Positions 13,469 through 62,959 of a stretch of 64,000 nucleotides of DNA are shown piece by piece. Numbering within the stretch: position 1 is the stretch's first letter; every line of letters begins with the position of its first letter. Origin of the DNA: an uncultured Eubacteriales bacterium (GTDB lineage Bacteria; Acidobacteriota; Aminicenantia; Aminicenantales; Saccharicenantaceae); assembly GCA_964423315.1 (NCBI GenBank), contig CAYREO010000012.1, positions 15,534 to 79,533 on the forward strand, written 5' to 3'. Below the pieces are notes generated by a model that did not search any database, was not told the DNA's origin, and worked only from the letters and a program-made list of their open reading frames with translations. The position numbers were made by a program, and so were the translations under genes.

Positions 13469-13494
13469 CGTCCGCGAACAAGGAGGACGGAGAC

Positions 13495-14085: not shown

Positions 14086-14110
14086 TCCGCACCCGCCTCC
14101 GTCGCCGCTC

Positions 14111-45930: not shown

Positions 45931-45968
45931 GGGACATTCGGCGCGCTAGAATAGCACTTCGCGCAGAG

Positions 45969-46050
45969 GGGGTCAAATCTTCAATCATTAAATTTTCCGG
46001 CGCTCCGGTGTCCGACGATCTGAAGAATTGAATGATTGAGGGTTTGACCC
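45969..46050. repeat. Type A hairpin element, copy 4 (right arm degenerate)
   Basis: GGGGTCAAATCTTCAATCATTAAATTTTC ... GAATTGAATGATTGAGGGTTTGACCC. Confidence 0.88.
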
Positions 46051-46084
46051 TTCTGATTTGAACCCTTCTTCTGCGGCCCGCGGC

Positions 46085-46354
46085 CTAGAATTCCCGGTCG
46101 TCGCGCTTACAGTAATAGTTGTACGGGGAGATGTCGCAGCCGCCGAGAAAGAGCTCGCCCCGGTCGGCCTTCAGGAACATGGCGTGGGTGGGGAAGCCGT
46201 AGACGATGGGGATGACCTCGCCCGAGTCATGGCAGTACGGGCAGGCGGGCACGCGGCTCTTGCCGTTGCTTTTCGAGGGCGTTGTCCTGTGGGCGTGGGA
46301 CCGGCCGTTGCTCCGCCCGTTGCCGGGCCTGGGCTCATAATGTGGGCTTTCCAT
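46085..46354 (-). CDS. Small hypothetical Cys-containing protein
   Basis: CPYC..VIPIVYGFP..LFLGGC..YYC pattern; AAGG RBS. Confidence 0.7.
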   Translation of the reverse strand: MESPHYEPRPGNGRSNGRSHAHRTTPSKSNGKSRVPACPYCHDSGEVIPIVYGFPTHAMFLKADRGELFLGGCDISPYNYYCKRDDREF

Positions 46355-46461
46355 TCCGCACCTTCCTTCACAAGCTCCCGCTCATTTCCGAGCCAATGCT
46401 AAAAGCGGGCGGACTAGCCTCCTATCGCCTCCAGGGGTGATTTGGAGGGGGGATTTTCCGC

Positions 46462-46693
46462 GGGACATGGTGAATGCTGCCCCAATTTCGCAGGTTGCTT
46501 TCATGGCGGGGGGCATGCCCCTCAGGTCCGTATCCTCAGCTTGCCGGCCGGTGCCGAGCTTCTCGCTCTGCCCTTCGACTCATCGTAAAAACGCCCTTAA
46601 AAACGCGATAATACGGCAAGCGCCAAACTGATGAGCAAGACCATGCAACAACTAACTCATTGAAAATAAAGATTATTCTGTGGTCCGACCCCC
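46462..46693 (+). repeat. Type B element (about 232 bp)
   Basis: GGGACAT left end; CTAA-CTCA-TTGA-N17-TGGTCCGACCCC right end; close homologue of 48298-48526. Confidence 0.92.
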
Positions 46694-46703
46694 ATGGCCG
46701 GCC

Positions 46704-48251
46704 CTATCTCAGTTCTTTACGCGGTACGAGCTCGTCGGCCGTAGCCGCATGCCAGGCGAAGGAGGCCATGATCACGGCGTTCTTGATCAGGTCCTGCGGT
46801 TGGATCGTGTCGAGGAAATCGAGGTTCGTGTGGCCGGCCGTTCCCGGGATGCGATCCTGGATGAACTGGAAGCCGGGCAGGCCGACGCGGTCGAAGGAGA
46901 CGTGGTCGGTCGATCCGACGCTCTGGTTCGAGACGGCCCAACAGCCCATGTCGCGGAACGGCGCGATCCAGGCCGCCATCATCCGGCGGGCCCGCTCGTT
47001 GCCTTGAAGGTAGATCCCGCGGAAGGCGCCCGCCCCGTAGTCCATGTTGAAATAGGCGGAGAATTTGTCGTAGGGGGGCTTTCGGCCGATCTTGGGGTCG
47101 CGCGGATCGCCGAAGTGTTTTTTGACGTATTCGCCGGATCCGTAGAGGCCCTGTTCCTCGCCGCCCCACCAGGCCACCCGGATGGTCCGCCGCGGCCTGG
47201 CCCCGACGGCCTTGAGAATGCGGGCGGCCTCGAGAACCACGGCGCAGGAGGCCCCGTTGTCGCTCGGGCTGGGGCTGGCATGCCAGGTATCGAAGTGGGC
47301 GCCGATGATGACAACCTCGCCGGCGAGGTCCGTTCCGGGGATCTCGCCTATCAGGTTATGGGCCATCTCGCGCTCCTTGCCGATGCGATTGCGGACCTCG
47401 ACCTCGACCTTGACCGGAAGGCCGCGCTTCAGGATGCGGTACATCCGGTTGTAATGCTCGGGGGTGATCGACAGGATGGGGAGCGACGCCATGGTGGCCT
47501 CGTAGGACCATTTGTCGTCCTTGGTCCCGGGGCGGGCGAAGCCACTGACGGCCCCGATCCGACCTCCCGGGCACTGGAAGACGACGGCCGCGCCCTCGGC
47601 CTTGAAGAAGGCCAGTTGCTCATCGGGCTTGACCAGGTCCGGGTTGGCGGGAGGCTTCGCCGGGACGGCGCGGCGGGCCGGAAGAACGGTCTCCTCCAGC
47701 CGCCTCAGGTCCTCGTCTGTGTAGCGGTTGACCGGCGCATGGATCGCATAGGGATCGATATCCAGGGGCGGGTTCATCAGGACGGCCGCCCCCTTGAGCC
47801 TGCCCTTGAGCTTGGCCAGCTCGGTCCTGGTCTGAACGTCGGCGATCACGGCATGGACGGTCAGCTTGCCTTCCGTCCCGGGCGTGTGGGCCAGCGGGAA
47901 TCCGACCATCATCTGATAGACCGGCTCGATCATGTGGACCGAGGTGTATTCATTGTCCCACGGCACGCCGTAATCCATGAACGGCTCGAGCGTCACGTTC
48001 TCCAGCCCGAGTTTGACGAACGTCTCACGGGCCCAAGCGTGAGCCCTTTTCATGCTTTGTGACAGGGTCAGCCGGGGACCGATGACGTCGGTCATGAAGC
48101 CCACAATGTCCATGACTTGGGAGCGCTGCAGGCCTTCCTCGCGGATGCGGGCGACCATGTCCCAATCGGCTTGGGGGGCGGCAGTCTGGGCCAATGCCAA
48201 GATCGGCGCGAGAACCAGAGTGGCGAGGGCAATGCGGCGGGCACGGTTCAT
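46704..48251 (-). CDS. Exported M28-family (PA-domain) peptidase
   Basis: ATG 48251 after GGAGG; GAHFDTW, SDNG, GGEEQGLYGS, FNMD, STDHVSF, HTNLD. Confidence 0.9.
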   Translation of the reverse strand: MNRARRIALATLVLAPILALAQTAAPQADWDMVARIREEGLQRSQVMDIVGFMTDVIGPRLTLSQSMKRAHAWARETFVKLGLENVTLEPFMDYGVPWDNEYTSVHMIEPVYQMMVGFPLAHTPGTEGKLTVHAVIADVQTRTELAKLKGRLKGAAVLMNPPLDIDPYAIHAPVNRYTDEDLRRLEETVLPARRAVPAKPPANPDLVKPDEQLAFFKAEGAAVVFQCPGGRIGAVSGFARPGTKDDKWSYEATMASLPILSITPEHYNRMYRILKRGLPVKVEVEVRNRIGKEREMAHNLIGEIPGTDLAGEVVIIGAHFDTWHASPSPSDNGASCAVVLEAARILKAVGARPRRTIRVAWWGGEEQGLYGSGEYVKKHFGDPRDPKIGRKPPYDKFSAYFNMDYGAGAFRGIYLQGNERARRMMAAWIAPFRDMGCWAVSNQSVGSTDHVSFDRVGLPGFQFIQDRIPGTAGHTNLDFLDTIQPQDLIKNAVIMASFAWHAATADELVPRKELR

Positions 48252-48297
48252 GTGGACCTCCATGGGCGCGGCGTTTGCCGCCCATTATATAAAATTT

Positions 48298-48526
48298 GGG
48301 GACACAATACCTACTCCCCGATTTCGAAAATTGCTTTCACGGGGGGGCATGCCCCTCCGGTCCGTGTCCCCAGCTTGCCGGCCGGTGCCGAGCTTCTCGT
48401 TCCGCTTTTGGATTCATCGCAAAAATGCCCCTAAAAACGCGATTATGCGGCAAGCGCCAAGCTGATGAGCAAGACCATATAGCGACTAACGCATTGATAA
48501 TAAAAACCATTCTGTGGTCCGACCCC
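48298..48526 (+). repeat. Type B element (about 229 bp)
   Basis: GGGGACACAATACC left end; CTAA-CGCA-TTGA-N17-TGGTCCGACCCC. Confidence 0.93.
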
Positions 48527-48540
48527 GAATGGGGTAAAAT

Positions 48541-49335
48541 GTGCTCGTGCGAAGGAACGGGCTGTTCTATGTCCCGGGGTGGCTTTATGACGCGGCGCTC
48601 GGCACGGCGTTGCGCGGGTTGCGGCGGAGGATTGCGGCGGACGTCGCGGCCGAGGGCCTCTTCCCTTGTCTCGACATATGTTGCGGCACGGGCAGCCAAG
48701 TCCGCGCCATCAATTCGAGCGGCATCGGCGCCGTCCCCGGCCCGCGGGCCGAAGGGAGTACGGACGCAACCGGAGCGCGCGGGCGCGGCCTCGTCATCGG
48801 GCTCGACAGCCATTACGGGATGATCCGCTATGCCTCAGCCCGGGCGGGCGTTCGGCGACTGGCTTGGGCGCCGGCGGGGATGGGATCCGACCGGACGAGC
48901 GCATCGCCGGCAGGAACGCTGCCAGCGGCGTCTGAGCCCATGCCTGCGGGCGCGGCCTTCGTCGTCAGTGACGCCCTACGCCTGCCCTTCAAGGAAGCGT
49001 CTTTCCGGGCCGTCATGATCTCTTTCGGCCTCCACGACAAGTCGCCGGAGGACCGGATGGTGATCGCCGGCGAGGCCCGCCGCGTCCTGGCGCCCGGCGG
49101 CAAGGCGATCTTCGTCGACTTCGAGAACCCTTGGAACGCGCGATCGCGGCTCGGGGCTCTCCTGGTCCACGCCATCGAGCAGACGGCCGGCGGCGCTCAC
49201 TACCGGAACGGCCGCATATTCCTGGCCCGCGGCGGTCTGCGGTCCTTTCTTCGCGAGTCCGGATTCGCGGAGGAGTCGCGTCGTGACATCGAGACAGGCT
49301 CGCTCGCTGTCGTCACGTGCCGCGCACGTCATTAA
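48541..49335 (+). CDS. Class I SAM-dependent methyltransferase with two low-complexity inserts
   Basis: LDICCGTG, IGLD, DALRLPF..ASFRAV..SFGLH, VLAPGG. Confidence 0.85.
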   Translation: MLVRRNGLFYVPGWLYDAALGTALRGLRRRIAADVAAEGLFPCLDICCGTGSQVRAINSSGIGAVPGPRAEGSTDATGARGRGLVIGLDSHYGMIRYASARAGVRRLAWAPAGMGSDRTSASPAGTLPAASEPMPAGAAFVVSDALRLPFKEASFRAVMISFGLHDKSPEDRMVIAGEARRVLAPGGKAIFVDFENPWNARSRLGALLVHAIEQTAGGAHYRNGRIFLARGGLRSFLRESGFAEESRRDIETGSLAVVTCRARH

Positions 49336-49350
49336 CAAAAGGAGGGTGTC

Positions 49351-49824
49351 ATGAAGAAAATGAACGCGCTGCTGGTCATCGGCCTGATCGGCATTCTGAC
49401 CATCGGCGTCAACTTCGGCGTCCAATCGAAGCGCGCTTTCAGCGGTGACCCAGGCATCTGGTGGACCGCGAAGACGATGCCTTTGAGCTTCGAGGAAACT
49501 CAGAAGGCCTTCGAGCTGTTCATCGATGGCCGGCTCCTCCAGAGACACCTTGCCGACGGGACGCTGATGATCGCGAGGAGCGACGGCGAACACCATCGCC
49601 TCGAACCGGGCGATATCGCCGTTCGCATCAACAATTGGCACAAGGTCAGAGCATCGATCCTGGCCCAGGCCCTGCCGTCCTGCTTTTTGTTCGGCGTGAG
49701 CCTGACGATGCTGGTCCTAGGCCTCGCTCAGATCGTGGCCAGGAAGAGGGGAGGCTCGACCGGCGGCGGCCAACTCGATCAAGAAGGGGTCAAATCTCCA
49801 ATCATTAAAAATTCTCCGCTCTGA
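49351..49824 (+). CDS. Hypothetical membrane protein; C-terminus reads into hybrid A/B element
   Basis: AAGGAGG RBS; hydrophobic N- and C-segments; ends QEGVKSPIIKNSPL. Confidence 0.75.
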   Translation: MKKMNALLVIGLIGILTIGVNFGVQSKRAFSGDPGIWWTAKTMPLSFEETQKAFELFIDGRLLQRHLADGTLMIARSDGEHHRLEPGDIAVRINNWHKVRASILAQALPSCFLFGVSLTMLVLGLAQIVARKRGGSTGGGQLDQEGVKSPIIKNSPL

Positions 49825-50056
49825 CGCGCTTGAAGGACCGCGATTTTATGAGCAGAAGCTAAACTCCTCCCACCCGAGGCCGGCCATGATCGGCGAGCAT
49901 GCAAGGGGGACGATGTGCACTATGGATGGGCCCTCTGTACGACCATTCCCATTTTTGCCATTAAAAATGTGAAAAAAAGCCGCCTTCCAAACTGATGGGG
50001 CGATCTACCGCTGGGCTAACGAGTTGATAATAAAGAAAAAAGTGTGGTCCGACCCC
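49786..50056 (+). mobile_element. Hybrid element: type A arm at left, type B end at right (MITE-like, about 271 bp)
   Basis: GGGGTCAAATCTCCAATCATTAAA at 49786 with no partner arm; CTAA-CGAG-TTGA-N17-TGGTCCGACCCC ending at 50056. Confidence 0.8.
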
Positions 50057-50128
50057 CAAGGTTGACTTGCATGAGGGTGTTGGCTAAGCTTGGGTCATCA
50101 TCAGTCAGGAGCGTAAGGAGGAGCTTCC

Positions 50129-50974
50129 ATGAAAAAGATGATTGCGGCTCTGTTGATGATGATAGTGGCCATGGCGGTCTCCCCGGCCCTGGCGGCCGCG
50201 AAGAGCGTCAAGGTCGTCGATGAGGTAGTCGTCAAGAAGCTGCCGCCGGTCAAGCAACGGCCCATTGAGATCGGCTCCATCCATGAGGCTTACCTGAACG
50301 ATCATTGCCTGATCGGGACCATGCTGCTGAGTGGCGAGAACCGGCAGGCGGTCCTGGACCTGGCCGCCAAGCGGGGGGCCACGATGGTCCTGATAGATTT
50401 CAGCAGGTGGATGGTCGATAAGAAAGAAACATGGGTGTCTCGATACGAGTCAGCCGGGGCCGGGAAGATGCGCACGCAGTGGACCACCGATATCGTGAAG
50501 CGCCCCGGCTTCTATGTGGAGCTGTTCGCGCCCGGCATCGATTACCGCGACGGAGGGCGGCGCTTTTGCGCCCATGGGTGCGGCACGATCGACGAGCTCA
50601 AGCGTTATCTGAGTCTGGGGGTCGATCCGGATGCTCTCCTCGAGTCGATCGTTGAACAACAATCCACCTTCGGCGAATATTTACATATCAGCTGGGTGAC
50701 GCACATGCATGCCGAGCTGGAGATGATCGCCCTCACCCTGAGGAGCGGAGCCAGCGGCAAGAAAGCCGCGAAAATCGCGAACGACAATCTCACAAATCAT
50801 ATCAATAACTATGGATATTCGCTCCCCAATCACTACGACGAAGAGGTCGTCTGGCCCATCGGGCATCTCCCCGCGAACAGTAGCGGTATTGTCCGAGGCG
50901 CAGTAGCCTTCAACCAGGCCTGGCTGGCCAAGATCCGCCTGATGATCTACCGGCACGCCGGCCTCTTGAAATGA
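50129..50974 (+). CDS. Hypothetical exported protein
   Basis: GAGGAG RBS, signal peptide (ALA-AAK), visibly more A/T-ending codons than core genes. Confidence 0.75.
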   Translation: MKKMIAALLMMIVAMAVSPALAAAKSVKVVDEVVVKKLPPVKQRPIEIGSIHEAYLNDHCLIGTMLLSGENRQAVLDLAAKRGATMVLIDFSRWMVDKKETWVSRYESAGAGKMRTQWTTDIVKRPGFYVELFAPGIDYRDGGRRFCAHGCGTIDELKRYLSLGVDPDALLESIVEQQSTFGEYLHISWVTHMHAELEMIALTLRSGASGKKAAKIANDNLTNHINNYGYSLPNHYDEEVVWPIGHLPANSSGIVRGAVAFNQAWLAKIRLMIYRHAGLLK

Positions 50975-51112
50975 GGGACACCTTCTGGCTGCTGGCCGCA
51001 TTTCATCTTTTTAGCGGCTAAAACAAGGAAAAATCGGCTTCCGCAAGCTGATAAGGGCTGTTGCCGATAGATTATTATATTGAAAAACAATGAGATCGTG
51101 TGGTCCGACCCC
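50975..51112 (+). repeat. Type B element (about 138 bp) between convergent genes
   Basis: GGGACAC directly after the TGA; TTGA-N17-TGGTCCGACCCC. Confidence 0.85.
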
Positions 51113-51135
51113 AATCGAGACCGAGATAGGCTTAT

Positions 51136-52266
51136 CTAGCGCCTAACGGCTTTCTCCTTGGCCGGCACGGCGACGTCGACCACGAAGAACCCCCGGACCC
51201 GCTCGATGACCTTCTGTTGTTCCCCCGGGCGTTCGGGGTAAAGAGTGGTCTGGCTGGCGTGGATCTGGTTCTCCGGGGCCCGCGTTACGAGCGCGATGCT
51301 CGAGGCCCGCAGCGGATGGTTCGGGTCATAAACGTCGATGGACATCTGCCCCGTCGCCTCGTTGAACCTGTAACCGGTGGCCAGGACCTGGTGGTTGTGG
51401 AACACCCCGCCCGCGAAGTTGTCCTGCTCGACCCGGATGAGGCCGAGGATGGCCGGCATGCCGGAATCGATGACGCGCCGCAGCTTGGGGACCTCCTGCG
51501 TCGTCTTGTGTCCGATCGTGTGGTAGGCGAGCGCCTGGGGCTTGGTCGGGCTCTGGGTGAACTCGACGAACTTCGCCCACGATCCTTCGGTCATTGTTTG
51601 GAGCTGGGCCGAGACGAGCTCCTGGCCGATCGAGTCCGTGGGTTTCGTGTCCGCCGGGATCGGCGGGCCGCCGGCGTATCTCCTCAGGGCACTGAGGCTC
51701 ATCCCGCCGCACACGGTCCAGTCGGAGCAGATGTTGTTGAAGGGCCAGCAGACCCGCTGTTTGTAATTCGCGAAGCGCCAGCCGTGGGTCGCGGTCTTGA
51801 ACGCGGTGGACTTCTCCACCCAGCGGTCGGCCGGGATCTGCAGATCGATCCGCAGGCTCTCGCGGTGCGGCTTGTCGTTGTAGGTCTTTGACTGGCCGAC
51901 CTTGACCCACACGCCGACGTTCCTCAGGACGGTAATGAAAACATCGGGCCGCCAGGTCGTGATGTTGTGCGGCGCGGGGTCCCAGTGCTTGGCTTCGATC
52001 CGGATCGAATAGTCGCCCTGGGCATCGGTCGTTGTCTCGCCGATGAAGTCGTTCTTGTCGAGGTCGCCCGTCCCGTCGTGGTCGAAGGCCCGGACGCGGA
52101 CGCCGGCGGCGGGCTTGCCGTCCGTGAAAGTGATCCTCCCCAAGACCGGTCCCTTGGCGTAGTCCTGGGCACGGGAGTGGGGGACGAGGGCCGTCAGAAC
52201 GATCCATGCGGCGAGGGCCAGCGGGATTGCGAATTTGTGTTCGGCCGACCTATAGGTCACGGACAT
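51136..52266 (-). CDS. Exported protein: transthyretin/carboxypeptidase-regulatory-like domain plus putative papain-like domain
   Basis: GVRVRAFDHD; CGGMS...HQVLATGY...VYDPN. Confidence 0.7.
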   Translation of the reverse strand: MSVTYRSAEHKFAIPLALAAWIVLTALVPHSRAQDYAKGPVLGRITFTDGKPAAGVRVRAFDHDGTGDLDKNDFIGETTTDAQGDYSIRIEAKHWDPAPHNITTWRPDVFITVLRNVGVWVKVGQSKTYNDKPHRESLRIDLQIPADRWVEKSTAFKTATHGWRFANYKQRVCWPFNNICSDWTVCGGMSLSALRRYAGGPPIPADTKPTDSIGQELVSAQLQTMTEGSWAKFVEFTQSPTKPQALAYHTIGHKTTQEVPKLRRVIDSGMPAILGLIRVEQDNFAGGVFHNHQVLATGYRFNEATGQMSIDVYDPNHPLRASSIALVTRAPENQIHASQTTLYPERPGEQQKVIERVRGFFVVDVAVPAKEKAVRR

Positions 52267-52323
52267 GGATCCTCCTTCCCTTGGAGTCTTTCTGCTCGCT
52301 CTCCATTATCAATGTTTTGTTTT

Positions 52324-52602
52324 GGAGATACAATACCCTTTTCCGGATTTCACGGATTTCCCATGTGTGCGGGGCACACGCTGCCGATTCGCATCAGCCA
52401 ACACCTCTGCCTGCTGGCCTCACCTCGTCCTTTTGGGCAAGAAAGAAGGAGATACTGAGGTCCGGCCCCGATCAAGGCCCCCTATACGACCTCTCCTTTT
52501 TTGCCCTCAAAAAGGTGAAAATCAGGCGACCGCCAAACTGATGAGCAGATTCGCCACGGACCTAACGAGTTGATAATAAAGAAAAAAATGTGGTCCGACC
52601 CC
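52324..52602 (+). repeat. Type B element (about 279 bp)
   Basis: Degenerate left end GGAGATACAATACC; CTAA-CGAG-TTGA-N17-TGGTCCGACCCC. Confidence 0.88.
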
Positions 52603-53935
52603 AATCAAGGGAATCGAGGAGGGCCTGCGTGGTGACGGCAGGCGAGACGGCGACGAAGCGCAGGGCGGCCCGGCCGTTGATGCGGGTGATCGAGACCGAG
52701 CGCTCCCCGCTCTCCTGCATCCGATTGTAGATCTCGAGCTGCAGCGCGTCGAGCCGCTCGTCCGCCACTCCCTCCGGCTTGAGGCGCACGCACAGGATCC
52801 CCGTGTCCGGGATGTGGCAGACCTCGACATCCGGCGCGCCGGCCAGCGCCTCGGCGAATCCCGTGATGGCCGCAAGCGGCGCCCGCAGCCTCTCCCGCAC
52901 TCCGGCCAATCCCTGGTGTTTGAGCGACGCGACCAGCGCCAGCGCCGACATCGGCCGGGTCGACGGCGCCGACTTCAAGCCCGGGTTCGGCCGCGTGTCG
53001 TCCTCGCGGTTGAAATACTCCCCGTAGATGGCCATCCGCCGGAAGTCCTCGCGCCGCTTGACGAACAGGACCGAGCTGGGGATGGGCACTCCGAGCTGCT
53101 TGTGAGGGTCCCAGGTCACCGAATCCGCCCTTTCGTAACCCGCGAAAAGCGGCGCGAACTCCGGCACCAGCGCGTAGGCCAGGCCGTAGGCGCCGTCGGC
53201 GTGGACCCAGGTCCGCGTCCCCTCGCACAGGTCGACGACCGCGCCCACGGGATCGACAGCTCCCGTCGAGGTCGTCCCGGTCGTGGCCACGACGGCGAAG
53301 AGATCCTCCCGCAGCCGCGTGTTCGACAGGATCTCCTCCAGGGCCTCGACGTTCATCCGCTGGCGCCCGTCGACCGGGATGCGGATGAGGCTCTCCTCGC
53401 CGAGCCCCAGCATGCGCACGGCGTGACGGACCGAGAAGTGGGCCTGCTCCGAGACGGCCACGGCCAAGCGCTCGGGCTTGCGGAACCCGCGCAAACCCTT
53501 GGCCGCCAGGTCGAACCCGCAGTCCTCGGCCTTGCGGTGAAGGGCCATGTACAGGGCCTGCTGGTTGGCGTACGTCCCGCAATACATGAAGGTCGCCGCG
53601 GCCGTCTCCGGGAACCCGAACAGCCGGACGAGCGTCTCGCCGCACATCTCCTCGAGCACGGCCCCGCCCGGCGAGACCTGCCAGTTTGTCACACCCTGGT
53701 TGTGGCTCAGGGCGACCGCCGCGCCCAGCTCGGCCCCGGCCTCGGGCGGCGTATTGAAAAAGGAATGGAACGACGGCAATCCGTAATCCGCGAGATGCGG
53801 CACGAGCCGCTCGTCGATGAGCCGCCCGACCTCCTCGAGCGGCGTCCCCTGCTCGCCGAACTCGACGAGGGGAGCGAGATCACGGGCGATCGCTTCGGGG
53901 GTCGCTCCGGAGTAGATCTTTTTGTTCATGGCCAA
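52562..53935 (-). CDS. Group II PLP-dependent decarboxylase (Ddc-like); stop supplied by type B element
   Basis: SEQAHFSV, TTGTTSTGAVDP, WVHADGAYG, SVTWDPHKQL (PLP lysine). Confidence 0.9.
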   Translation of the reverse strand: MAMNKKIYSGATPEAIARDLAPLVEFGEQGTPLEEVGRLIDERLVPHLADYGLPSFHSFFNTPPEAGAELGAAVALSHNQGVTNWQVSPGGAVLEEMCGETLVRLFGFPETAAATFMYCGTYANQQALYMALHRKAEDCGFDLAAKGLRGFRKPERLAVAVSEQAHFSVRHAVRMLGLGEESLIRIPVDGRQRMNVEALEEILSNTRLREDLFAVVATTGTTSTGAVDPVGAVVDLCEGTRTWVHADGAYGLAYALVPEFAPLFAGYERADSVTWDPHKQLGVPIPSSVLFVKRREDFRRMAIYGEYFNREDDTRPNPGLKSAPSTRPMSALALVASLKHQGLAGVRERLRAPLAAITGFAEALAGAPDVEVCHIPDTGILCVRLKPEGVADERLDALQLEIYNRMQESGERSVSITRINGRAALRFVAVSPAVTTQALLDSLDWGRTTFFSLLSTR

Positions 53936-54834: not shown

Positions 54835-56267
54835 GTCGCCCTCCTCTTGCCGGCCGTCCGGATGTATTCGCGCGTCCGGTCGGTGATGTCCGTGGCATAG
54901 GCGTTGCGTCCCTCGAGGCAGTCCTTCATCAAGGCGAAGAACACGCCGCTCAAGGCCAGGATGGCCGCGAGGTTCGGCAGGGCGCAGGCGCCCACGGCGA
55001 TATTGGCGAAGACCCACAGGCGGTCGACGTCGGCGAACCCGGCGAAAAGGACCCCCGGCACGAGATAGACCCAGCGCAGCCAGCGCATGGCCGCCCCGCC
55101 GAAGACGTGGGACGCGGCCGTCTCGAAGTAGATGAAGAACCCGATCTGGGTCGTCAGGCAGAACGTCAGGATGGAGAACGAGACGACGGCCGAGGCCGCC
55201 GCGGCCGGGAGCGAGGAGCGGAAGGCGGCCAGGACGAGCTCGATCCCCGTCCGCCCGCCGTCGAGGACACCCGTCGACAGGATGGCGAAGGCCGTGATCG
55301 AGCAGATGACGACGGTGTCGACGAAGACCTCGAACGCGCCCCACATCCCCTGCTGGAACGGATGCGGCGTGTCGGCGGTGGCGTGGGCCATGGGCGCCGT
55401 GCCGAGGCCGGCCTCGTTCGAGAGCATGCCCCGGGCCATGCCGTACTTGAGGGCCGCGGCGACGCTGCGGCCGGCGACCCCCGCGGCGGCGGGCACGGGC
55501 GAGAAAGCGTGGCCGACGATCATGGCCAGGACGGCCGGCGCCTTCCCGATGTTGAGAAGGAAGACGACGAGCCCGGCCGCGATGTAAACGAGGGACATGA
55601 CCGGAACCAGCCGCGCGCAGAACCCGCCGATGCGCCGGAGGCCGCCGAGGATGACCGCGCCCGCGACCACGGCGATGACCGCCGTCGTGATGTAAGGGTT
55701 GAGGCCGTAGCTCCCGAGGAAGGCCCGGCCGACGGTGTGGGACTGCAGGAGCGTCGCCGTGAACAGGGCGTTGACGATGACCCCGACGCTGAAGGCCTTG
55801 GCCAGCGGACCCCAGCCGAGGCCCTTGCGGATGTAGTGCATCGGGCCGCCGCGGACCGGGCCGTCGCCGCCTTCGGTCGTGCCCGCGTCGCGATAATGGA
55901 CGGCCAGGGTGATCTCGGCCGTCTTGGTCATCATCCCCAGGAAGGCCAGGACCCACATCCAGAAGACCGCCCCTGGGCCGCCGAGCGACAGGGCCGTAGC
56001 CACGCCGGCCATGTTGCCCATGCCGACCGTGCCGGCCAGGGCCGTCGAGACGGCCTGAAAAGGGGTCAGGCGGCCGGCTCGGGCGTCCGCGCGCTTGCCG
56101 AGGACCGTGCCGGCCGTGCGCCGGAGGATGAAGCCGAATTTGCGGACCTGGAAGAAGCGCGAGCGCAGGGTGAAGAACAGGGCCGTCGCGGCGATGAAGG
56201 CCGTCGTCCACGGCCCCCAGAGGAGGGCGTCGATGCGGGCGGCGACAGCGAGCAGTTGTTCTATCAT
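54831..56267 (-). CDS. Alanine/glycine:cation symporter (AGCS) family
   Basis: ALAGTVGMGNMAGVA, GGPGAVFWMW, GGPMHYI, SNEAGLGTAP, FVDTVVIC. Confidence 0.93.
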   Translation of the reverse strand: MIEQLLAVAARIDALLWGPWTTAFIAATALFFTLRSRFFQVRKFGFILRRTAGTVLGKRADARAGRLTPFQAVSTALAGTVGMGNMAGVATALSLGGPGAVFWMWVLAFLGMMTKTAEITLAVHYRDAGTTEGGDGPVRGGPMHYIRKGLGWGPLAKAFSVGVIVNALFTATLLQSHTVGRAFLGSYGLNPYITTAVIAVVAGAVILGGLRRIGGFCARLVPVMSLVYIAAGLVVFLLNIGKAPAVLAMIVGHAFSPVPAAAGVAGRSVAAALKYGMARGMLSNEAGLGTAPMAHATADTPHPFQQGMWGAFEVFVDTVVICSITAFAILSTGVLDGGRTGIELVLAAFRSSLPAAAASAVVSFSILTFCLTTQIGFFIYFETAASHVFGGAAMRWLRWVYLVPGVLFAGFADVDRLWVFANIAVGACALPNLAAILALSGVFFALMKDCLEGRNAYATDITDRTREYIRTAGKRRAT

Positions 56268-56352
56268 CGGACCGGGCCGGCCTCGGGCCGCGCCGCAAGC
56301 TTATCCAGTCGCCGGAGCCGTTGTCAAGCCAAGAAGGCCTCCGTTCAGCTTT

Positions 56353-56469
56353 GTGAAGGATATCACCCCTAGCCCCCCGGCCCCCCGGGAACCAGTCCCG
56401 ACGGTTCCCCCGTCGCCAAAGCGACGGGTCCCCCTCCGCTACGGGGGTCTTCGGGGCGACATCCTTCAC
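56353..56469. repeat. 117-bp GC-rich palindromic element with 17-bp imperfect terminal inverted repeats
   Basis: GTGAAGGATATCACCCC / GGGGCGACATCCTTCAC (15/17); inner hairpin CGTCGC-CAAA-GCGACG. Confidence 0.7.
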
Positions 56470-56597
56470 CGCCTCACTCCGGCCTTCCAATGCGGAAAAC
56501 GGGGACAGGCGGGGAAAAGGCGGGGGACACGAATCGGAAGTACCTGCGGCCGCTTCTTTCGTTAAGCCTAGCGGAGGGCTTCCTGGGATTCAACGTT

Positions 56598-58004
56598 TTA
56601 GGCGAGCGTGCGGTGCAGATAACGCCCGCGGCCGGGGCGTCCGACAAGATCTTCGCCGTCGACGATGAGCTCGCCGCGCGACCAGACCTTGAGGACCTTG
56701 CCGATGACGGGGAGGCCCTCGTAGGCCGACCAGTCCGCGGCCATGTGGAGCGTGTCGCGGCTCATGATCCACTCGGCCGTCGGGTCGAACAGGACGACGT
56801 CGGCGTCGGCGCCGGGCGCGAGGCTCCCCTTGCGGGGCGCGAGGCCGAAAAGCCGGGCCGGGGCGGTGGACGCGATATCGACAAGGCGCGTGAGAGGAAG
56901 CCCGCGCTTGACGACCCCTTCCGAATGGAGAAGCGGCAGGCGGACCTCGACGCCCGGGATGCCGTTCGGGCAGAGGTCGAAGCGCTCGGCGCCCATCAGC
57001 TTGGCCTGCCACGAATAGGCCGCGTCGTCGGAGCTGACCTGGGCGATGCGTCCGTCGGCCACGGCCTCCCAGAGCCGGTCGCGGACGGCGGCGGTCCGCA
57101 GCGGCGGCGAGCAGATCCATTTGATGCCGTCGTCGCGCGCCAGCATGTCCTCGGTGAAGACGAGGTAGTGGGTGCAGGTCTCGGCGCGGACGTCGAGCCC
57201 TTCGCGGCGGGCCGCGGCGACGAGGTCGATGCCCTCGGCCGTGGCCATGTGGACGATGAACAGGCGGCCGCGCGTCTCGCGGGCGGCGCCGATGGCCCGG
57301 GCGATGGCCGCGTTCTCGACCTCGGGCGGACGGCTGCGGGCGTGGTAGATGGGCGCGACGCGCCCCTCGGCGACGAGGCGCGGGATAGTCCTTTCGAGGG
57401 CGTCGTTGTCCTCGGCGTGGACGAGGAGCACGCCGCCGGCCCGGCGCAGGGCGTCGAGGATCGCCGCGAGCTCCTCGGGCCCGACCATCAGGCCCTCCTG
57501 GCGGTAGGTCAGGTAGCACTTGACGGTCGGGGCGCCGGCTTCGACGATGGCCGGGATGCCGGCGAATGTCTCGGCGGTGGGGCGGGTGATGACCGGGTGG
57601 ACGCCCCAATCGATGAGGGCCTTGCCCGCGGCCTCGTCTTTCTTGCGGTCGATCGTCCGGAGAAGGGGCTCGCCGTCCTCCTGGTTCGAGAAATCGATGA
57701 CCGAGGTCACCCCGCCGAAGGCCGCGGCGCGCGTGCCGCTCTCGTAGTCGTGGACGCTGACCGTGCCCATGAAGGCGTCGTTGAAGTGGACGTGGGTGTC
57801 GACGGCGCCGGGGAGGACGAGCAGTCCCGCGGCGTCGATGACGCGGTCGATGGGGCCGATGGAGACAAACGCGCCGCCGCCTTCGAGGCGCCCGCCGCAC
57901 GCGGCGATCGTCTCGCCCTCGATGAGAAGATCGCCGGGCGAGGAGGATTCGGACGTGACGATCGTGCCGCCGCGGATGAGGGTCCGGGGCGCGCGAGGGC
58001 TCAT
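56598..58004 (-). CDS. hydA: Dihydropyrimidinase / D-hydantoinase
   Basis: PGAVDTHVH, AAAFGGVT, VKCYLTY, LVHAED, IVHMAT, AETCTHYL, CSPPLR, SSDD, PNGIPGVE. Confidence 0.92.
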   Translation of the reverse strand: MSPRAPRTLIRGGTIVTSESSSPGDLLIEGETIAACGGRLEGGGAFVSIGPIDRVIDAAGLLVLPGAVDTHVHFNDAFMGTVSVHDYESGTRAAAFGGVTSVIDFSNQEDGEPLLRTIDRKKDEAAGKALIDWGVHPVITRPTAETFAGIPAIVEAGAPTVKCYLTYRQEGLMVGPEELAAILDALRRAGGVLLVHAEDNDALERTIPRLVAEGRVAPIYHARSRPPEVENAAIARAIGAARETRGRLFIVHMATAEGIDLVAAARREGLDVRAETCTHYLVFTEDMLARDDGIKWICSPPLRTAAVRDRLWEAVADGRIAQVSSDDAAYSWQAKLMGAERFDLCPNGIPGVEVRLPLLHSEGVVKRGLPLTRLVDIASTAPARLFGLAPRKGSLAPGADADVVLFDPTAEWIMSRDTLHMAADWSAYEGLPVIGKVLKVWSRGELIVDGEDLVGRPGRGRYLHRTLA

Positions 58005-58026
58005 GGCGTCCGCTCTCCCGCGGCCC

Positions 58027-59460
58027 TCATCGCCCCGACTTCTCCACCATACGCACGGCTTCGGCGAAGATCTCCAGTCCCTTGCGGGCGTGGGCCTCGG
58101 TGACGACCAAGGGCGGCAGGAAGCGGGCGACGTTGAAGTAGTGGCCGCCGACCTCGATGAGCAGGCCGCGGCGATGGCAGGCCGCGCGGACCTTGGCGGC
58201 GAGCTCGGGCGCGGGCTTGCGGGTGGACTTGTCCTCGACGAACTCGACGCCGAGCATCAGTCCGCGGCCGCGGGCCTCGCCGATGATGGCCGAGTCCCTC
58301 TCGAGCGCCTTGAGGGTTTCGAGCATCGCCCGGCCCAGGCGTTCGGCGCGGGCGGCCAGGCCGCGGTCGAGCATGAAGCGCAGGGACGCGGCGCCGGCGG
58401 CGTAGGCCACGACATTGCCCCGGAAGGTGCCGATGTGCTTGCCGCGCGGGAGCGTGTTGAGACGCTCCTTGTAGGCGGTCGCGGAGATGGGGAAGCCCAG
58501 GCCGCCCAAGGCCTTGCTCATGGTGACGATGTCGGGGACGGCGCCCGAGTGCTCGAAGGCGAAGAACTTGCCGGTGCGGCAGAAGCCGGCCTGGATCTCG
58601 TCGACGATGAGCAGGACCTCGTGCTTGTCGCAGATCGCGCGGACGGCCGCCAGCCAGCCGTCCGGCGGGACGATCGAGCCGCCCTCGCCCTGGACGGCCT
58701 CGACGATGACCGCCGCGGGGCGGGCGATCCCGGAGTGCGGGTCCTCGAGCTTGTGGTCGAGATAGGCGGCGCAGTGGAGATCGCAGGTTTCGGGCGACTT
58801 GGCGAAGGCGCAGCGGTAGCAGTAGGCGTAGGGCAGGAAGTGGACCTCGGGAAGGAGAGGCAGGAAATCGGCGCGGAAGGGCTCGCCGCTCGTCAGCGAC
58901 AGGGCGCCGGCGGTCATGCCGTGGTAGGAGCCTTCGAAGGCGATGATCGGGATGCGGCGGGTGTTGTACTTGGCCAGCTTGACGGCGCTTTCGACGGCGT
59001 CCGAGCCGGTCGGGCCGGCGAAGAAAAGGCGCGAGAGCTCTGGGGGGAGGACCATGCGCAGGGCTTCGACGAGCGCCCGGCGGGGCGGGCTGGGGATGTC
59101 GAGCGTGTGGGTCAGGTCGTCCAGCTGGGCGCGGGCGGCCTCGAGGACGTCGGGGTGGGAGTGGCCGACGTTGAGGACCCCGGCCCCGCCGAAAAAGTCG
59201 ATGTAGACGTTGCCGTCGACGTCCTCGACCGTGGCCCCGCGGCCGCGGCGCAGGGCCATGGGCAGGCCGCGCGGGTAGGAGACGGCCGAGCTTTCGTGGC
59301 GTTCCTGGAATTCGAGGAAGTCGCGGGACTCCGGCCCGGGGGGAGGCGAGGCGATGAGGGGGGCGCGGGGGTCGGAGAGCCGCTCGAAGATCTCTTCGGG
59401 GGCCGTTTCGGGGGAGGGTGCGGGATCATGGGAGGATGCGAGGGGCTTTCGTTCGTCCAT
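58027..59460 (-). CDS. Class III aminotransferase, diaminobutyrate--2-oxoglutarate transaminase (Dat/EctB)-like
   Basis: [51 protein letters not shown]. Confidence 0.85.
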
Positions 59461-59575
59461 GGGGGCCTCGTGTCTTTATCAGGTAGGCCGCGGAGTGTGC
59501 ACTTCGACGGGAACGGGGCGCGCACATCCCGCCGGCCGAGCAAATTGTCGTGCCCGCGGCGAGAATTGTCAAGAA

Positions 59576-59617
59576 GCAAGAAGGGGAGCAAGAAGGGGAG
59601 GTTTGACCCTCTCCCCG
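59576..59617. repeat. Collapsed type A-like remnant or terminator at the toxin 3' end
   Basis: GCAAGAAGGGGA x2 then GGTTTGACCCTCTCCCC; both outer ends of type A with the arms missing. Confidence 0.5.
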
Positions 59618-60052
59618 CTATAGCGTCGGGTCGACGGGCTCGAGGAACGGGAAGCGGTGGAAATCCGTGTCCCGCGTGTAGATCCTCTTGACGCCGTGCT
59701 CGCGCATCAGGACGGCGGTGTGGGCGTCATAGATCAGGTTGCCGCGCAGGTGGGATCCGTTCTCCAGCACCTCGGCGGCCACCCGGGCGTGTCGCTCGGA
59801 GGGGACGAGCAGGGCGAACGTAGGGGAAGCCAGGATGGCTTCGACGAAGCCCCAGGCCTGGGCTACGCCCCACGGCTGACGGAAGACCCGCGGATGGGTG
59901 ATGACCCGCAGGAACTCGTAGAGGATGCCCCAGGTCGAGTACCAAGGCGTGGACTGACGTCGCCATTCTTCGAGCTTTTTCCGGGAGGCAGCGTGGAAAG
60001 GCGAGCTCTTGTCGGCGGCGTAGACGAAGATATTCGTGTCGACGACGAACAT
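59618..60052 (-). CDS. vapC: PIN-domain toxin
   Basis: VVDTNIFVYA, LYEFLRV, IYDAHTA, IYTRDTDF. Confidence 0.92.
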   Translation of the reverse strand: MFVVDTNIFVYAADKSSPFHAASRKKLEEWRRQSTPWYSTWGILYEFLRVITHPRVFRQPWGVAQAWGFVEAILASPTFALLVPSERHARVAAEVLENGSHLRGNLIYDAHTAVLMREHGVKRIYTRDTDFHRFPFLEPVDPTL

Positions 60053-60279
60053 CAGCGGCCCTCCATCGCCTGATAGAGGGCGTCGCGGTCGGCGATCTCG
60101 ACCAGGGCGCCGCCGCTCGTGAACGACGGCAGGGGAGGCATGGGGGAGGCCGCCTCCTTCTCGGCGAGCAGGCGCCGGAGGGCGGATTCCACGAGCTCGG
60201 ACATGGTGCAGCCGCGGCGGGCCGCTTCCTTCTTGAGAAGGGTCATCACGGAATCGTCGATGTTCAAGGTCGTTTTCAT
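60052..60279 (-). CDS. vapB: Ribbon-helix-helix antitoxin
   Basis: MKTTLNIDDSVMTLLKKEAARRGCTMSELVE; TGATG overlap with toxin. Confidence 0.88.
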   Translation of the reverse strand: MKTTLNIDDSVMTLLKKEAARRGCTMSELVESALRRLLAEKEAASPMPPLPSFTSGGALVEIADRDALYQAMEGR

Positions 60280-60280
60280 C

Positions 60281-60311
60281 CATATAACCATACATAATAT
60301 ATGGCTATATG
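60281..60311. promoter_or_regulatory. Candidate vapBC operator palindrome
   Basis: CATATAACCATA-N7-TATGGCTATATG (11/12) immediately upstream of the antitoxin start. Confidence 0.65.
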
Positions 60312-60469
60312 TCAAATCGTTTGATATGGATGCGCGCTCCGGCTCCCGATCATGGCCGGTCACGGTCGTTCGGGCCGCTATCCTCGCTGTGCTCCATGAT
60401 GTCGATTCGTTCACTTAATAAAGACGCAGCGCCCCCTGGCATATTCTCACGGGTAGAAACAAAATCCGC

Positions 60470-60620
60470 GAGGTTGATTGGGGTATATGTCAGGCGGGGG
60501 GGAGGAGCTGCATTCTTTTTGCCCGAAAAAACATGCAAATCCGGCGTCCGGCAAGCTGTTGAGCAGATCGCCATGCTAGCTAAATAATTGATAATAAATA
60601 AAAATATTAGGTCCGACCCC
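60470..60620 (+). repeat. Type B element (left end not discernible)
   Basis: CTAA-ATAA-TTGA-N17-AGGTCCGACCCC; about 150 bp homologous to 62811-62959. Confidence 0.88.
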
Positions 60621-62583
60621 GGCCGAAGGCCGTTTCCCAGGTGGCCCAGGGGCCGCCGAAGGGGCGCAGGCCGAGGTCCACGGGGCTGGTCGGGGCCGGC
60701 TCGAGGGCCTCGAAGACCTCGCGGGCGTGGGCCTGGGCCCGGGCGTAGAGCGACGCGGCGCGCCCGTAGAGGGCCAGCGCGATATTCTTTGCGGCGTTCA
60801 CACCTTCTCTGCCCCCCTTGACCCGCGATTCCGCTGCATCGCCTTCGCCCTCGCCCAGCTTGCCTCCTCCCGCGCGGCTCCCTCCGGCCGCTTCCATCTC
60901 CAGCTCGGCCCGGTTGAAGGCGTTGCGGCCCTCGAACATCTCGGCCACGGCCAGGCCGTAGAGCGCCTTGAGGTCGCCGTAGCCCGCGTCGCGATAGTTC
61001 AGGTGCATCAGCTTCGCGTAGGCGTTGGCGATCTCCTCCTCGGCCGCCGCCTTGGCCGCTTCCGCCACCTCGGCCGGTCCCTTGGCCAGCCGCAGCCGGT
61101 AGAACGTGTGGGTCCCCGCCGCGTAGCGGTAGGTAGGATTCATCATCGATCCGTCGCCGGCCTTCGACCCGTGCAGGACCCGCCCCGGCGGCCCCGTGCA
61201 GATGTGGGCCACGCCCTCGTCGCCGTCGTGCGGCTCGACCACGGCCGTCCACAGGTTCGTCGGCCGGCAGAACATGGCCTCCCAGCCCCCGGCCGGCGGC
61301 CACGGCGGCGGCGCGCCCGGGAAGCGCAGGACCATCTTGGCGAACTCGACGTCGATCTCGCCGTGGTAATTGTTGAACAGGTCCCAGATCATCTTGTTGC
61401 GCGGCGCGGCGTAGGCGCCGTACCCTCCGTGCCCGCCGACGAACCCGCCCTCCTTGGTCACCTGCATATCCGGGTGGAGGTAGTTGTTGGTCGAGAACAT
61501 GAAGTCCCGCTCCCCGAAATCGCCGGGCCGGCGCACGGCCTGGACGGCCGCCGTCTTCTCCACGATGCAGGCCTCGCCGCGCACGTCGACGAAGTGGAAG
61601 TTCTCGGGGACGTTGATCTGCCACGGCATGATCATATCGCGGGCGGCGAAGGCCCCGTCGGCGAAGCGCACGATGTAGGGCAGCGAGCAGGCCCAGCCGA
61701 TCCCGTAGCCCTCGTCCTCGGGGCGGGGCGAGCCGCCGCCGCCGGAATTGCCCAGGAACAGGCCGCGGTTGTTCATCAGGAAGTGGTCGCCGATCTCGCC
61801 GGCGTCGGCCCCGCACATGTAGGCGTTGCCGCGGTCCGGGAAGGCGACGATGACCACGGCGTGGGCCACGTCGGGCGTGTCGAGGGTGTCGAGCCCGATG
61901 AGCCGGCCGTCCTTGGTCGCGCTCCCCCAGGCCGAGGCCACCGAGCAGCGCTTGGGCGGCAGGGCGTCGCGCTCGGCGCCCTCCGGGTAGACCGAGGTCG
62001 CCGGATCGGGCAGCGTGCCGTTGATGAGCAGGACGTCCGTGTAGGTCATGGGGTAACCGGCGTGCGTCGCGCCGTCGGCCATGCCGCGCATGAAGTCGAT
62101 CCACTCCGGCGTGTAGCGGCGGATGAACGACTGGTTGGCCCGCAGCGCCTGCATCACCTCGTCGCGGCTGAAGCGCCGCAGGGCCGCGGCCCACTTGTCC
62201 TCGCGGGTCCGGTCGATGTAGGCGCAGGCCTGCTCGCCGTACTGGAAGCCCATCTCGTAGTCGGAGCCCTTGAGGATGACGACCGGCAGGATGGACGGCG
62301 GCAGCGAGTCGCGCGACGGATCGTCGGCGGGAACGCGGGCGGAGAGGAAGGGGTCCGTCGAGGCCGGCGCGGAGGACGGGTTGCCGCGCGCGGATGTCAT
62401 CGGTTTCGAGAAAGGCGCGCGCGAGAAGGCGCCCGGTCCCGACCGCGAGGCGTTCGGCCCCTCCGACGGCCCGGCTTGAAGGGCCGGGAGGATGAACACG
62501 ACGATGACGACGGCTATGACGGCCAGGATGATCAGGATGATGGCGAATATGCCCCAGGCGGCGGCGATGCGGTTGGTCTTCAT
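60607..62583 (-). CDS. C45-family Ntn-hydrolase/acyltransferase-like protein with N-terminal membrane anchor; stop supplied by type B element
   Basis: ATG 62583 after AAGGAGG; LKGSDYEMGFQYG, R|CSVASAWGSATKDG, STNNY. Confidence 0.75.
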   Translation of the reverse strand: MKTNRIAAAWGIFAIILIILAVIAVVIVVFILPALQAGPSEGPNASRSGPGAFSRAPFSKPMTSARGNPSSAPASTDPFLSARVPADDPSRDSLPPSILPVVILKGSDYEMGFQYGEQACAYIDRTREDKWAAALRRFSRDEVMQALRANQSFIRRYTPEWIDFMRGMADGATHAGYPMTYTDVLLINGTLPDPATSVYPEGAERDALPPKRCSVASAWGSATKDGRLIGLDTLDTPDVAHAVVIVAFPDRGNAYMCGADAGEIGDHFLMNNRGLFLGNSGGGGSPRPEDEGYGIGWACSLPYIVRFADGAFAARDMIMPWQINVPENFHFVDVRGEACIVEKTAAVQAVRRPGDFGERDFMFSTNNYLHPDMQVTKEGGFVGGHGGYGAYAAPRNKMIWDLFNNYHGEIDVEFAKMVLRFPGAPPPWPPAGGWEAMFCRPTNLWTAVVEPHDGDEGVAHICTGPPGRVLHGSKAGDGSMMNPTYRYAAGTHTFYRLRLAKGPAEVAEAAKAAAEEEIANAYAKLMHLNYRDAGYGDLKALYGLAVAEMFEGRNAFNRAELEMEAAGGSRAGGGKLGEGEGDAAESRVKGGREGVNAAKNIALALYGRAASLYARAQAHAREVFEALEPAPTSPVDLGLRPFGGPWATWETAFGRGRT

Positions 62584-62773
62584 GGGTCCCTCCTTCTTCA
62601 ACTCCGGCGGATGAAGCCCTCCGGGGGCGGGGGCTCTCTAATGGAGGTTTTAACAGAGGCCGCGGGGGAATTCAAGGAAACCGCCACCGGCCGCTCGTCA
62701 CCGGGGACAGGGAGTTCGCGAAGCTCGGCCGGACTGTCGCGATCGACTGGCTCTCATGGAGGTGGAATAGAAC

Positions 62774-62959
62774 GGGGACATGTACCGCAGGTATGGGTCC
62801 AGGCATTTTTCGAGGTATTGATCGGGCATATGTAGATCGGGGGGGAGCCGCATTTTTTTTGCCCAAAAAACATGCAAATCCGGCGCCCGGCAAACTGTTG
62901 GCCAAGTCGTCCTGATCGCTAAAGAGCTGATAATAAATGAAAATTTCTGGTCCGACCCC
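62774..62959 (+). repeat. Type B element (about 186 bp)
   Basis: GGGGACAT left end; CTAA-AGAG-CTGA-N17-TGGTCCGACCCC. Confidence 0.9.

Follow-up and report, generated by a model that had tools for sequence, protein, structure and literature searches.

What lets whole genes come and go between conserved flanks of a bacterial chromosome? The question is raised by a 64,000-nt stretch of DNA (hereafter the window, whose coordinates are used throughout), an Aminicenantes-type sequence of ~66% GC in which the region 45969-62959 is punctuated by copies of a repeat termed type B. Comparison with related contigs confirms a cassette-like layout, in which B elements divide a gene island into units that relatives carry or lack as whole blocks. 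The repeats themselves are likely sites of recombination, driven either by catalysis by a REP-associated tyrosine transposase (RAYT) or by homology between co-oriented copies. The explanation favored here, tentatively and at a little under an even chance, is a homology-driven cassette-like array that works without an integron and is built on B repeats that have spread.

The type B unit is ~115 nt long and lies in the same orientation, on the + strand, in all seven copies found between 46 and 63 kb (two-sided binomial p = 0.016). These end at 46692, 48526, 50056, 51112, 52602, 60620 and 62959, and a profile made of all seven copies recovers each one at nhmmer E 1e-22 to 1e-30. The co-oriented elements of an earlier preliminary description are real, its end at 46693 counting one C too many. 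All window copies terminate in ...CTGWGGTCCGACCCC, of which the GGTCCGACCCC part is invariant, with a sharp edge at ...CCCC, and all are intergenic or overlap just the final codons of a gene. Two further ends, types A and C, likewise finish in ...CCCC. Most window elements are doublets that combine an inverted A- or C-type left end with a B right end, for instance 48300-48526 (227 bp, C/B) and 49786-50056 (271 bp, A/B). The elements and the units between them are:

46462..46692, + strand: element 1, ~231 bp, a degenerate C-type left end and B (core 46578-46692); its terminus is 11 nt from the M28 stop codon
46704..48263, - strand: unit 1, M28 peptidase, carboxypeptidase Q-like (Pfam)
48300..48526, + strand: element 2, 227 bp, a C-type inverted terminus GGGGACACAATACC and B (core 48412-48526)
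48541..49824, + strand: unit 2, S-adenosylmethionine (SAM)-methyltransferase (48541-49335) and a 157-aa protein (49351-49824)
49786..50056, + strand: element 3, 271 bp, a type A half (49786-49814) and B (core 49942-50056)
50129..50974, + strand: unit 3, a 281-aa secreted hypothetical protein
50998..51112, + strand: B unit 4, the most divergent copy, beginning at the stop codon of the 281-aa gene
51113..52469, - strand: unit 4, a 376-aa gene (51136-52266, - strand) with promoter, degenerate C-type end (~52312) and a degenerate B terminus GGTCCGGCCCC (52459-52469, + strand)
52488..52602, + strand: B unit 5, with positional orthologs in the related contigs L059, L140 and L144
52562..59460, - strand: unit 5, pyridoxal phosphate (PLP) decarboxylase, Asp/Glu racemase, Na/Ala symporter, amidohydrolase and class-III aminotransferase
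59618..60449, - strand: PIN-domain toxin and an upstream small open reading frame (ORF), a window-specific insertion at ~59657-60448
60476..60620, + strand: element 6, a G-run left end and B (core 60506-60620)
60607..62601, - strand: unit 6, a 664-aa protein with no Pfam family
62840..62959, + strand: element 7, with its B core at 62845-62959; an extended -10-like box and the right-flank gene from 63004 come next

Homologues of the bracketed proteins gave access to contigs of relatives, whose genes in common with the window show 85-93% identity. With A, B and C for the repeat ends and PLPdc for the PLP decarboxylase, the locus reads, in window orientation:

Window: 89-aa gene, B, M28, CB, methyltransferase and 157-aa gene, AB, 281-aa gene, B, 376-aa gene with degenerate B end, B, PLPdc-racemase-symporter-amidohydrolase-aminotransferase, PIN, B, 664-aa gene, B, right-flank gene from 63004
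L059 (also L060 and L117): 97-aa gene, BB, M28, BB, PLPdc to aminotransferase, beta-lactamase-like gene, B (inverted), 664-aa ortholog
L140, L141, L142 and L143 (four separate assemblies): 89-aa gene, B, methyltransferase and 148-aa gene, AB, 281-aa gene, AB, PLPdc to aminotransferase, B, NHL/PEGA gene of 593 aa, B, S15 peptidase
L144: 281-aa gene, B, B, PLPdc
L079 and L147: ortholog of the right-flank gene, B, class-A-like beta-lactamase and 524-aa gene, BB, M28, B(B), 89-aa gene, 489-aa gene, SAM synthetase

The outer flanks are kept, and the interior measures 16.3 kb in the window versus 5 kb in L079, with M28 as the sole gene in common. M28 is present at the locus in L059, L079 and L147 and absent from L140-L143. 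The methyltransferase unit is found in L140-L143 and the 281-aa gene in L140-L144, and both are missing from L059 and L079. L144, L140 and L059 all lack the 376-aa unit. The PLP-decarboxylase block occurs in L059 and L140-L143 and is absent from the locus in L079, and the 664-aa gene has an ortholog in L059 and an NHL/PEGA gene in its place in L142. The preliminary description had proposed to look for genes that vary as blocks among relatives, the empty site keeping one element, and this pattern is seen for M28 (L140-L143), the 376-aa gene (L144, L140) and four genes in L059. An assembly artefact is an unlikely source of these arrangements, because that of L140 occurs in four assemblies and that of L059 in at least two, and because the window copies have at most 29 identical bases in common; L144 and L137 are single short contigs.

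Several breakpoints can be read to the nucleotide. Compared with L140, the window holds exactly one extra stretch, M28 plus one element, whose 1834 bp equal the spacing of two termini. The single B of L140 has the right flank of B48526 (copies are named by their ends) and the left flank of element 1. Compared with L144, the segment 51113-52469 is extra, and L144 represents an exact empty site for the 376-aa unit, with two B units 9 nt apart and a tandem CCCCGATTAAGG duplication in between. The extra segment starts directly 3' of the ...GGTCCGACCCC of B51112 and ends in its own ...GGTCCGGCCCC.

Repeats confined to intergenic DNA could nevertheless be bystanders that just occupy spacers while unrelated horizontal transfer and deletion vary the island. 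Any whole-gene indel would then necessarily be repeat-flanked, because the spacers are where the repeats sit, and B-type elements do take up 115-270 bp of spacers only 250-450 bp long. The limits of two blocks also bear no relation to B termini. The PIN module lies within the left part of element 6, between copies of a ~22-nt imperfect direct repeat (ACGGGAAGCG...AAATCCG at 59647-59669 and 60449-60471); at this site L059 has the beta-lactamase-like gene and L142 and L143 have nothing, the segment being continuous over 200 nt. Similarly, L059 carries a 407-aa gene and a MacB/FtsX-ABC transporter (12240-15675, 3.4 kb) where the window (45766-46086) and L140 have only a type A copy. In distant relatives, moreover, M28 sits in another context that has no B elements. 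The bystander explanation is still unlikely: several breakpoints fall within 0-3 nt of a B terminus, the empty sites keep exactly one element, and the bracketing copies are mutually closest in three arrays.

The distant M28 orthologs (78-82% aa identity, in more distant Aminicenantes) are found in an M28-MazE-PIN-OsmC context. Because they sit elsewhere and without B elements, the M28 position at this locus looks derived, as the sequence comparison suggests. They were set aside for polarity, since the locus itself gains no outgroup from them; L136, with a 60% homologue of the 376-aa protein, was uninformative and has no B elements. Downstream of the M28-MazE-PIN-OsmC genes, L138 (3441-9953) and L145 (5066-10246) carry tandem gene pairs in three or four repeats, each consisting of a 49-52-aa ORF followed by a ~350-430-aa tetratricopeptide repeat (TPR) protein. 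A variant of the type C end, GTATGGTGTCCCC (L145, L138), recurs among TPR genes of these more distant Aminicenantes.

As to the cargo, Pfam supports the M28 peptidase, the methyltransferase, the block from PLP decarboxylase to aminotransferase and the PIN domain. The first two had been named correctly in the preliminary description, whose 'C45' and 'papain-like' calls find no Pfam support. Promoters are found within the units themselves, which point either way, as had been described, and include a 7-kb core-looking operon. The suggestion that some cargo is compositionally foreign holds in part, for the methyltransferase, 157-aa and 281-aa genes, in which GC content at third codon positions is 0.77-0.81 versus 0.89-0.94 in flanking core genes. 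Two of the proteins are rare, the 376-aa protein having 76 homologues and the 281-aa protein 3 among 5.8 billion proteins; M28 homologues number thousands.

Neighboring copies had been described as resembling each other most, and the trend exists: identity is 86-87% for 46692/48526, 77% for 50056/52602 and 74-75% for 60620/62959. The 29-nt core CAGCTTGCCGGCCGGTGCCGAGCTTCTCG is found in both copies that bracket the M28 gene, CTAACGAGTTGATAATAAAGAAAAAA is found in both the 50056 and 52602 copies, and the string reported for 60620 and 62959 holds apart from a 1-nt difference in an A run. Within the window alone the trend is weak, with an adjacency permutation p of 0.08 and a Mantel test of identity versus distance that is not significant (p = 0.30). 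The corresponding permutation values are 0.08 for L109 and 0.13 for L142, giving a combined Fisher p of 0.03. L109 (2963-12431), on the same 376-kb contig as L059, is a second array with five co-oriented B units in 12.9 kb, and there too neighboring copies are most alike (89% and 81%).

This similarity had been taken for a duplicate made by insertion, a view that the relatives contradict. In L142, identity reaches 99% between the copies flanking the 281-aa gene and 98% over 200 nt between those flanking the NHL gene, yet the orthologous window copies are just 75-77% identical. The copy at the PLPdc position of L144 (L144_1198) appears replaced unit for unit, being 95% identical to window B50056 and 75% to its positional ortholog. 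Consequently, because L142 paralogs remain at 98-99% where window orthologs stand at 75-77% and the L144 copy was replaced, the similarity is maintained, and the pattern points to ongoing local copying or gene conversion and not to a relic of insertion. Positional orthologs of B are in general only 63-76% identical, compared with 85-93% for neighboring genes; B unit 4 and its L144 ortholog share 89% identity. The 98%-identical L142 repeat takes in 95 nt of unique DNA; a reading of the 95 nt at its left as a CGTC-tagged repetitive extragenic palindromic (REP) sequence was rejected, as it belongs to no repeat family.

Under the favored explanation, non-autonomous B elements, together with A and C ends, would fill every intergenic spacer between the 89-aa gene and the gene at 63004. 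They would have spread locally in one orientation, and co-oriented copies would then become join points for losing or gaining the DNA in between. The main routes would be homology- or microhomology-dependent deletion, Campbell-type integration and gene conversion. The direct repeats measured here are ~230 nt at 86% around M28, 200 nt at 98% around the L142 NHL gene and 296 nt at 86.5% around the 281-aa gene of L140/L142, and repeats of 200-300 nt at 86-98% identity should be good substrates for all three routes. Where the remaining repeat has diverged, the invariant 11-20-nt terminus could supply microhomology.

What kind of repeat is B? Its 5' end holds a T5/A5 inverted repeat, GCGTTTTT-GCCNNN-AAAAACGC, followed by a short GC hairpin and CAAACTGATG. 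The 3' part consists of a variable stretch, CTAAC-N-TTGATAATAAA, an A-rich stretch and the terminus. The opposite strand of CTAAC-N-TTGATAATAAA fits the integration host factor (IHF) consensus WATCAANNNNTTR, which raises the possibility that B is a host regulatory module (upstream promoter element, IHF site or bidirectional terminator) kept for expression and neither mobile nor recombinogenic. Indeed, 8-40 nt past many termini come -10 or -35/-10 boxes along with a gene in the same orientation, and four window copies abut stop codons of convergent genes. Such a role is nonetheless very improbable, as B orientation relative to genes is ~50:50, positional orthologs have diverged to 63-75% identity where flanking genes keep 85-93%, and the same termini flank a transposase gene. 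Nor does a conserved RNA fold appear: Rfam at gathering thresholds gives zero matches in the window, RNAalifold finds no consensus fold among 40 B copies, and the T5/A5 hairpin has only modest covariation support, so that a structured RNA was rejected. A promoter module was also rejected, since 4 of 7 window copies are directed at the 3' ends of convergent genes, and a consensus scan shows no enrichment. A sigma-54 promoter was discarded as none was seen on reading the sequence, and a hammerhead core for the CTGATGAG motif because the motif varies (CTGTTGAG, CTGATAAG, CTAATGAC) and GAAA/stem III does not follow.

Some genes begin 6-7 nt past a TATAAT box that itself lies 8 nt beyond a B terminus (GGTCCGACCCCAAATAAGATATAATACCGGCATG; L059 1589-1612, L005 ~2500), a spacing that suggests leaderless transcripts at those genes. 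At 52562-52602 the final 13 codons and TAG stop of the PLP-decarboxylase gene lie inside a B element, and the gene overlaps B in L059 (9678-9700) and L140 (11086-11126) too. Because these last codons fall within B, the C-terminus of the enzyme is supplied by the repeat, and the overlap in all three contigs implies that this B insertion is older than the lineage split.

Outside the array the window contains a solo B unit in the opposite orientation:

32289-32395, - strand: solo B unit, outside the 46-63 kb array

The cumulative GC skew has its minimum near 40 kb, between this copy and the + strand array, and the two B orientations may follow a strand switch near that minimum. The type A end, ...GGAGATTTGACCCC, closes in ...GACCCC as B does and belongs to an 82-83-bp near-perfect palindrome that is REPIN-like, with 29-nt arms (GGGGTCAAATCTCCAATCATTAAATTTTC, GGGGTCAAATCT...GGGTTTGACCC). 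Its window copies are:

28337-28419: type A
29094-29176: type A
35328-35410: type A
45969-46050: type A, between the 489-aa and 89-aa genes, a site also occupied in L140
49786-49814: type A half copy

The type C end, ...GGTATTGTGTCCCC, is found in the window at 48300-48316 and at ~52312 (- strand). It occurs also in L059 (~1470), L109, L124 and L047, often just upstream of a -10 box.

Beyond the window, genome and metagenome collections were scanned for the terminus pattern and then by profile search, and 135 fetched loci plus the window make up 136 sequence sets. These contain 100 matches to full-length B, 81 of them unique. Most often B occurs as an inverted, outward-facing pair, GGGGTCGGACC...GGTCCGACCCC. 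There are ~70 such pairs of 116-330 bp, in dozens of loci from metagenome-assembled genomes of several phyla, and their lengths concentrate at 116-128, 171, 226-245 and ~265 bp. Such doublets fold as long DNA hairpins with paired termini (-20 to -73 kcal/mol); window doublets have an A or C end, not a second B, as the partner. Four pairs stand 940-1015 bp apart (L027, L042, L080, L120) and enclose a single ORF of ~265 aa. The protein has an HUH motif (SNHIHL) and a downstream tyrosine and matches Pfam Y1_Tnp above cut-off (E 4e-8 to 2e-10). Its best NCBIfam match is the REP-associated tyrosine transposase (REP_Tyr_transpos, E 5e-21), with 75.1 and 67.9 bits to NF047646, whose cut-off is 80; the TnpA-IS200 match is weaker (E 2e-3). 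By tblastn the RAYT protein is encoded in eight loci that had been fetched only by DNA terminus, and an outward B terminus lies 30-190 nt from the gene in all eight: both termini in the four loci above and at least one in L036, L056, L125 and L130. The preliminary description had proposed a search for HUH Y1 or RAYT genes with the same ends, and they exist in these other genomes.

Because the same termini flank a Y1 HUH gene elsewhere, type B is, on sequence evidence, a REP/REPIN-like, RAYT-associated repeat and not an attC site. To judge by these matches, the autonomous form of the family is a ~1-kb element with a RAYT-type Y1 HUH (single-strand DNA) transposase between GGGGTCGGACC...GGTCCGACCCC. 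The four doublets examined have no direct repeats at their flanks, with neither a 5-bp nor any other target-site duplication. A miniature element with terminal inverted repeats (a MITE, or a Tn3-derived TIME) was rejected: the inverted repeats are present, but target duplication is absent and the autonomous copies encode a Y1 HUH and not a DDE enzyme. A Tn3-family end had been considered because GGGGTCGGACCTCAG resembles the Tn3 inverted repeat GGGGTCTGACGCTCAG, and it falls on the missing 5-bp duplication and the Y1 HUH protein. After the ...CCCC terminus, the first 6-12 nt (6-19 nt among the loci named below) are repeated in tandem in 15 of 81 copies versus 1.8 expected (maximum 7 in 500 shuffles). 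The form is often CCCC+flank CCCC+flank, and in 7 of the 15 a CCC stands before the second copy; examples are L033:6426, L016:4037, L007:2439 (CCCCAA x3), L062:341, L097:2782, L100:2390, L144:1052 and L059:9922.

A RAYT link invites a second way of making cassettes, doubtful yet credible, in which an HUH enzyme supplied in trans would cut one strand 3' of the ...GACCCC of co-oriented B, A or C ends and exchange strands, and the resulting circles would re-insert 3' of any terminus. Each excised circle would hold one terminus, in a single-strand analogue of the attC x attC and attI x attC reactions, and for the 376-aa unit the terminus would be joined to its own 5' flank, ...GGTCCGGCCCC|AATCGAGACC. 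Several features suit such a process: exact ...CCCC| junctions with little homology (the 376-aa unit and the 664/NHL swap); a 376-aa unit that bears its own degenerate 3' terminus and adjoins B51112 directly; hybrid A/B and C/B doublets; co-oriented arrays in the window, L142 and L109; and the post-terminus duplications, often with CCCC in between. A 79%-identical counterpart of the 376-aa gene, found in L137, shares its C-type end and promoter and is enclosed by B-type termini; its neighbor there is different, a kinase gene. The process would also match the in-vitro activities of and model for Escherichia coli TnpA-REP (PMC3333891). On the other side, this genome has no known RAYT, the L142 flanking duplications with their unique DNA are not what cutting only at the terminus predicts, and gene movement is not known from the REPIN/RAYT systems examined to date. 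The specific claim that ...GACCCC termini are sites at which an in-trans RAYT moves gene units as single-stranded circles, an integron-like capture on REP-type ends, is slightly more doubtful again.

Homology between co-oriented copies remains the favored driver, and a number of observations weigh against it. The 376-aa unit is bracketed by just ~20 nt of similarity with boundaries exact at ...CCCC, and the genes after B60620 in the window and B10288 in L142 (664 aa versus NHL) are swapped exactly at the terminus; both junctions fit a site-specific cut better than general homologous recombination. Some island indels, the PIN module and the L059 MacB/ABC block, lie away from B termini. As regards the nature of the repeat, the terminal 16 nt of B lack the GTAG/CGTC-tagged stem-loop of classical REPs, and tblastn finds no RAYT homologue in the window or in the fetched parts of relatives' contigs. 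The earlier statement that the window has no recombinase holds for RAYT, other recombinase types not having been screened; no integrase domain is found in the genes of 43-63 kb, no search aimed at IntI itself having been made. From the integron-like mechanism proposed at the outset, the block units stand and a RAYT link is found elsewhere, but no attC-like sites or integron features are seen and the long repeats suit homologous routes equally.

If true, movement of gene units as RAYT-made circles would provide the first example in nature of cargo genes moved by RAYTs. The role of RAYTs, REPs and REPINs, and whether anything but themselves moves, has been open since their first description. The locus offers natural filled and empty alleles, nucleotide-exact junctions, several uncultured lineages and candidate transposases with the same ends. 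Even a conservative reading would leave a widespread, previously undescribed repeat family that shapes a hypervariable island in a phylum without a genetic system.

Short repeats or sites also act as join points in REP-mediated rearrangements, one-ended capture by IS91/ISCR, the pdif modules of Acinetobacter and the minimal mobile elements of Neisseria. In these systems, too, flanks stay conserved while entire genes between them come and go, the enzyme acting in trans or being supplied by the host, and they differ from B in their sites and enzymes (RecA, Y2 HUH, XerCD). None of them is known to use RAYT-type ends.

Closer parallels are found among REP/RAYT systems, in which a transposase gene lies between two inverted copies and acts in trans (PMC3333891; PMC8266576). 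E. coli TnpA-REP cleaves and recombines single strands of BIMEs (bacterial interspersed mosaic elements) in vitro, and sequestration of flanking genes has been proposed (PMC3333891). In picocyanobacteria an association of TnpA-REP with genes has been noted, causation being unproven (bioRxiv 10.1101/2020.03.09.984088). Like REP/BIME and REPIN-RAYT repeats, B is extragenic and of high copy number, forms inverted hairpin doublets and, in other genomes, flanks a RAYT gene. Unlike them, the B unit is ~115 nt long, with an invariant 11-16-nt terminus common to several phyla, whereas a classical REP is a 20-40-nt palindrome after a GTAG/CGTC tag; CTGWGGTCCGACCCC allows a stem of at most 3-4 bp and has no tag. 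The RAYT of the B family also scores 75 bits against the 80-bit NCBIfam cut-off, and its co-oriented single units are spaced by genes that vary as blocks.

With IS200/IS605 elements and their gene-less derivatives (PATEs), B would share Y1 HUH chemistry, an apparent lack of target-site duplication and a strand-specific behavior that can yield co-oriented copies. IS200/IS605 elements insert directly 3' of a short specific sequence, and the 376-aa unit starts directly 3' of ...GACCCC. In contrast to them, B has inverted termini resembling terminal inverted repeats, and its protein groups with RAYT (E 5e-21 versus 2e-3).

The integron resemblance concerns co-oriented repeats that part one- or two-gene units, a single site at the empty position and combinatorial content, to which a single-stranded substrate, as for attC, would be added if a RAYT acts here. 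The attC cores (RYYYAAC/GTTRRRY) are absent, however, and B junctions read ...GGTCCGACCCC| and then variable flank. No attI/Pc was seen, the units have their own promoters, either orientation and in one case a 7-kb operon, and the enzyme family is HUH and not tyrosine recombinase. The B system thus works most like REP/BIME-RAYT, and possibly like IS200/IS605, and is integron-like in layout only.

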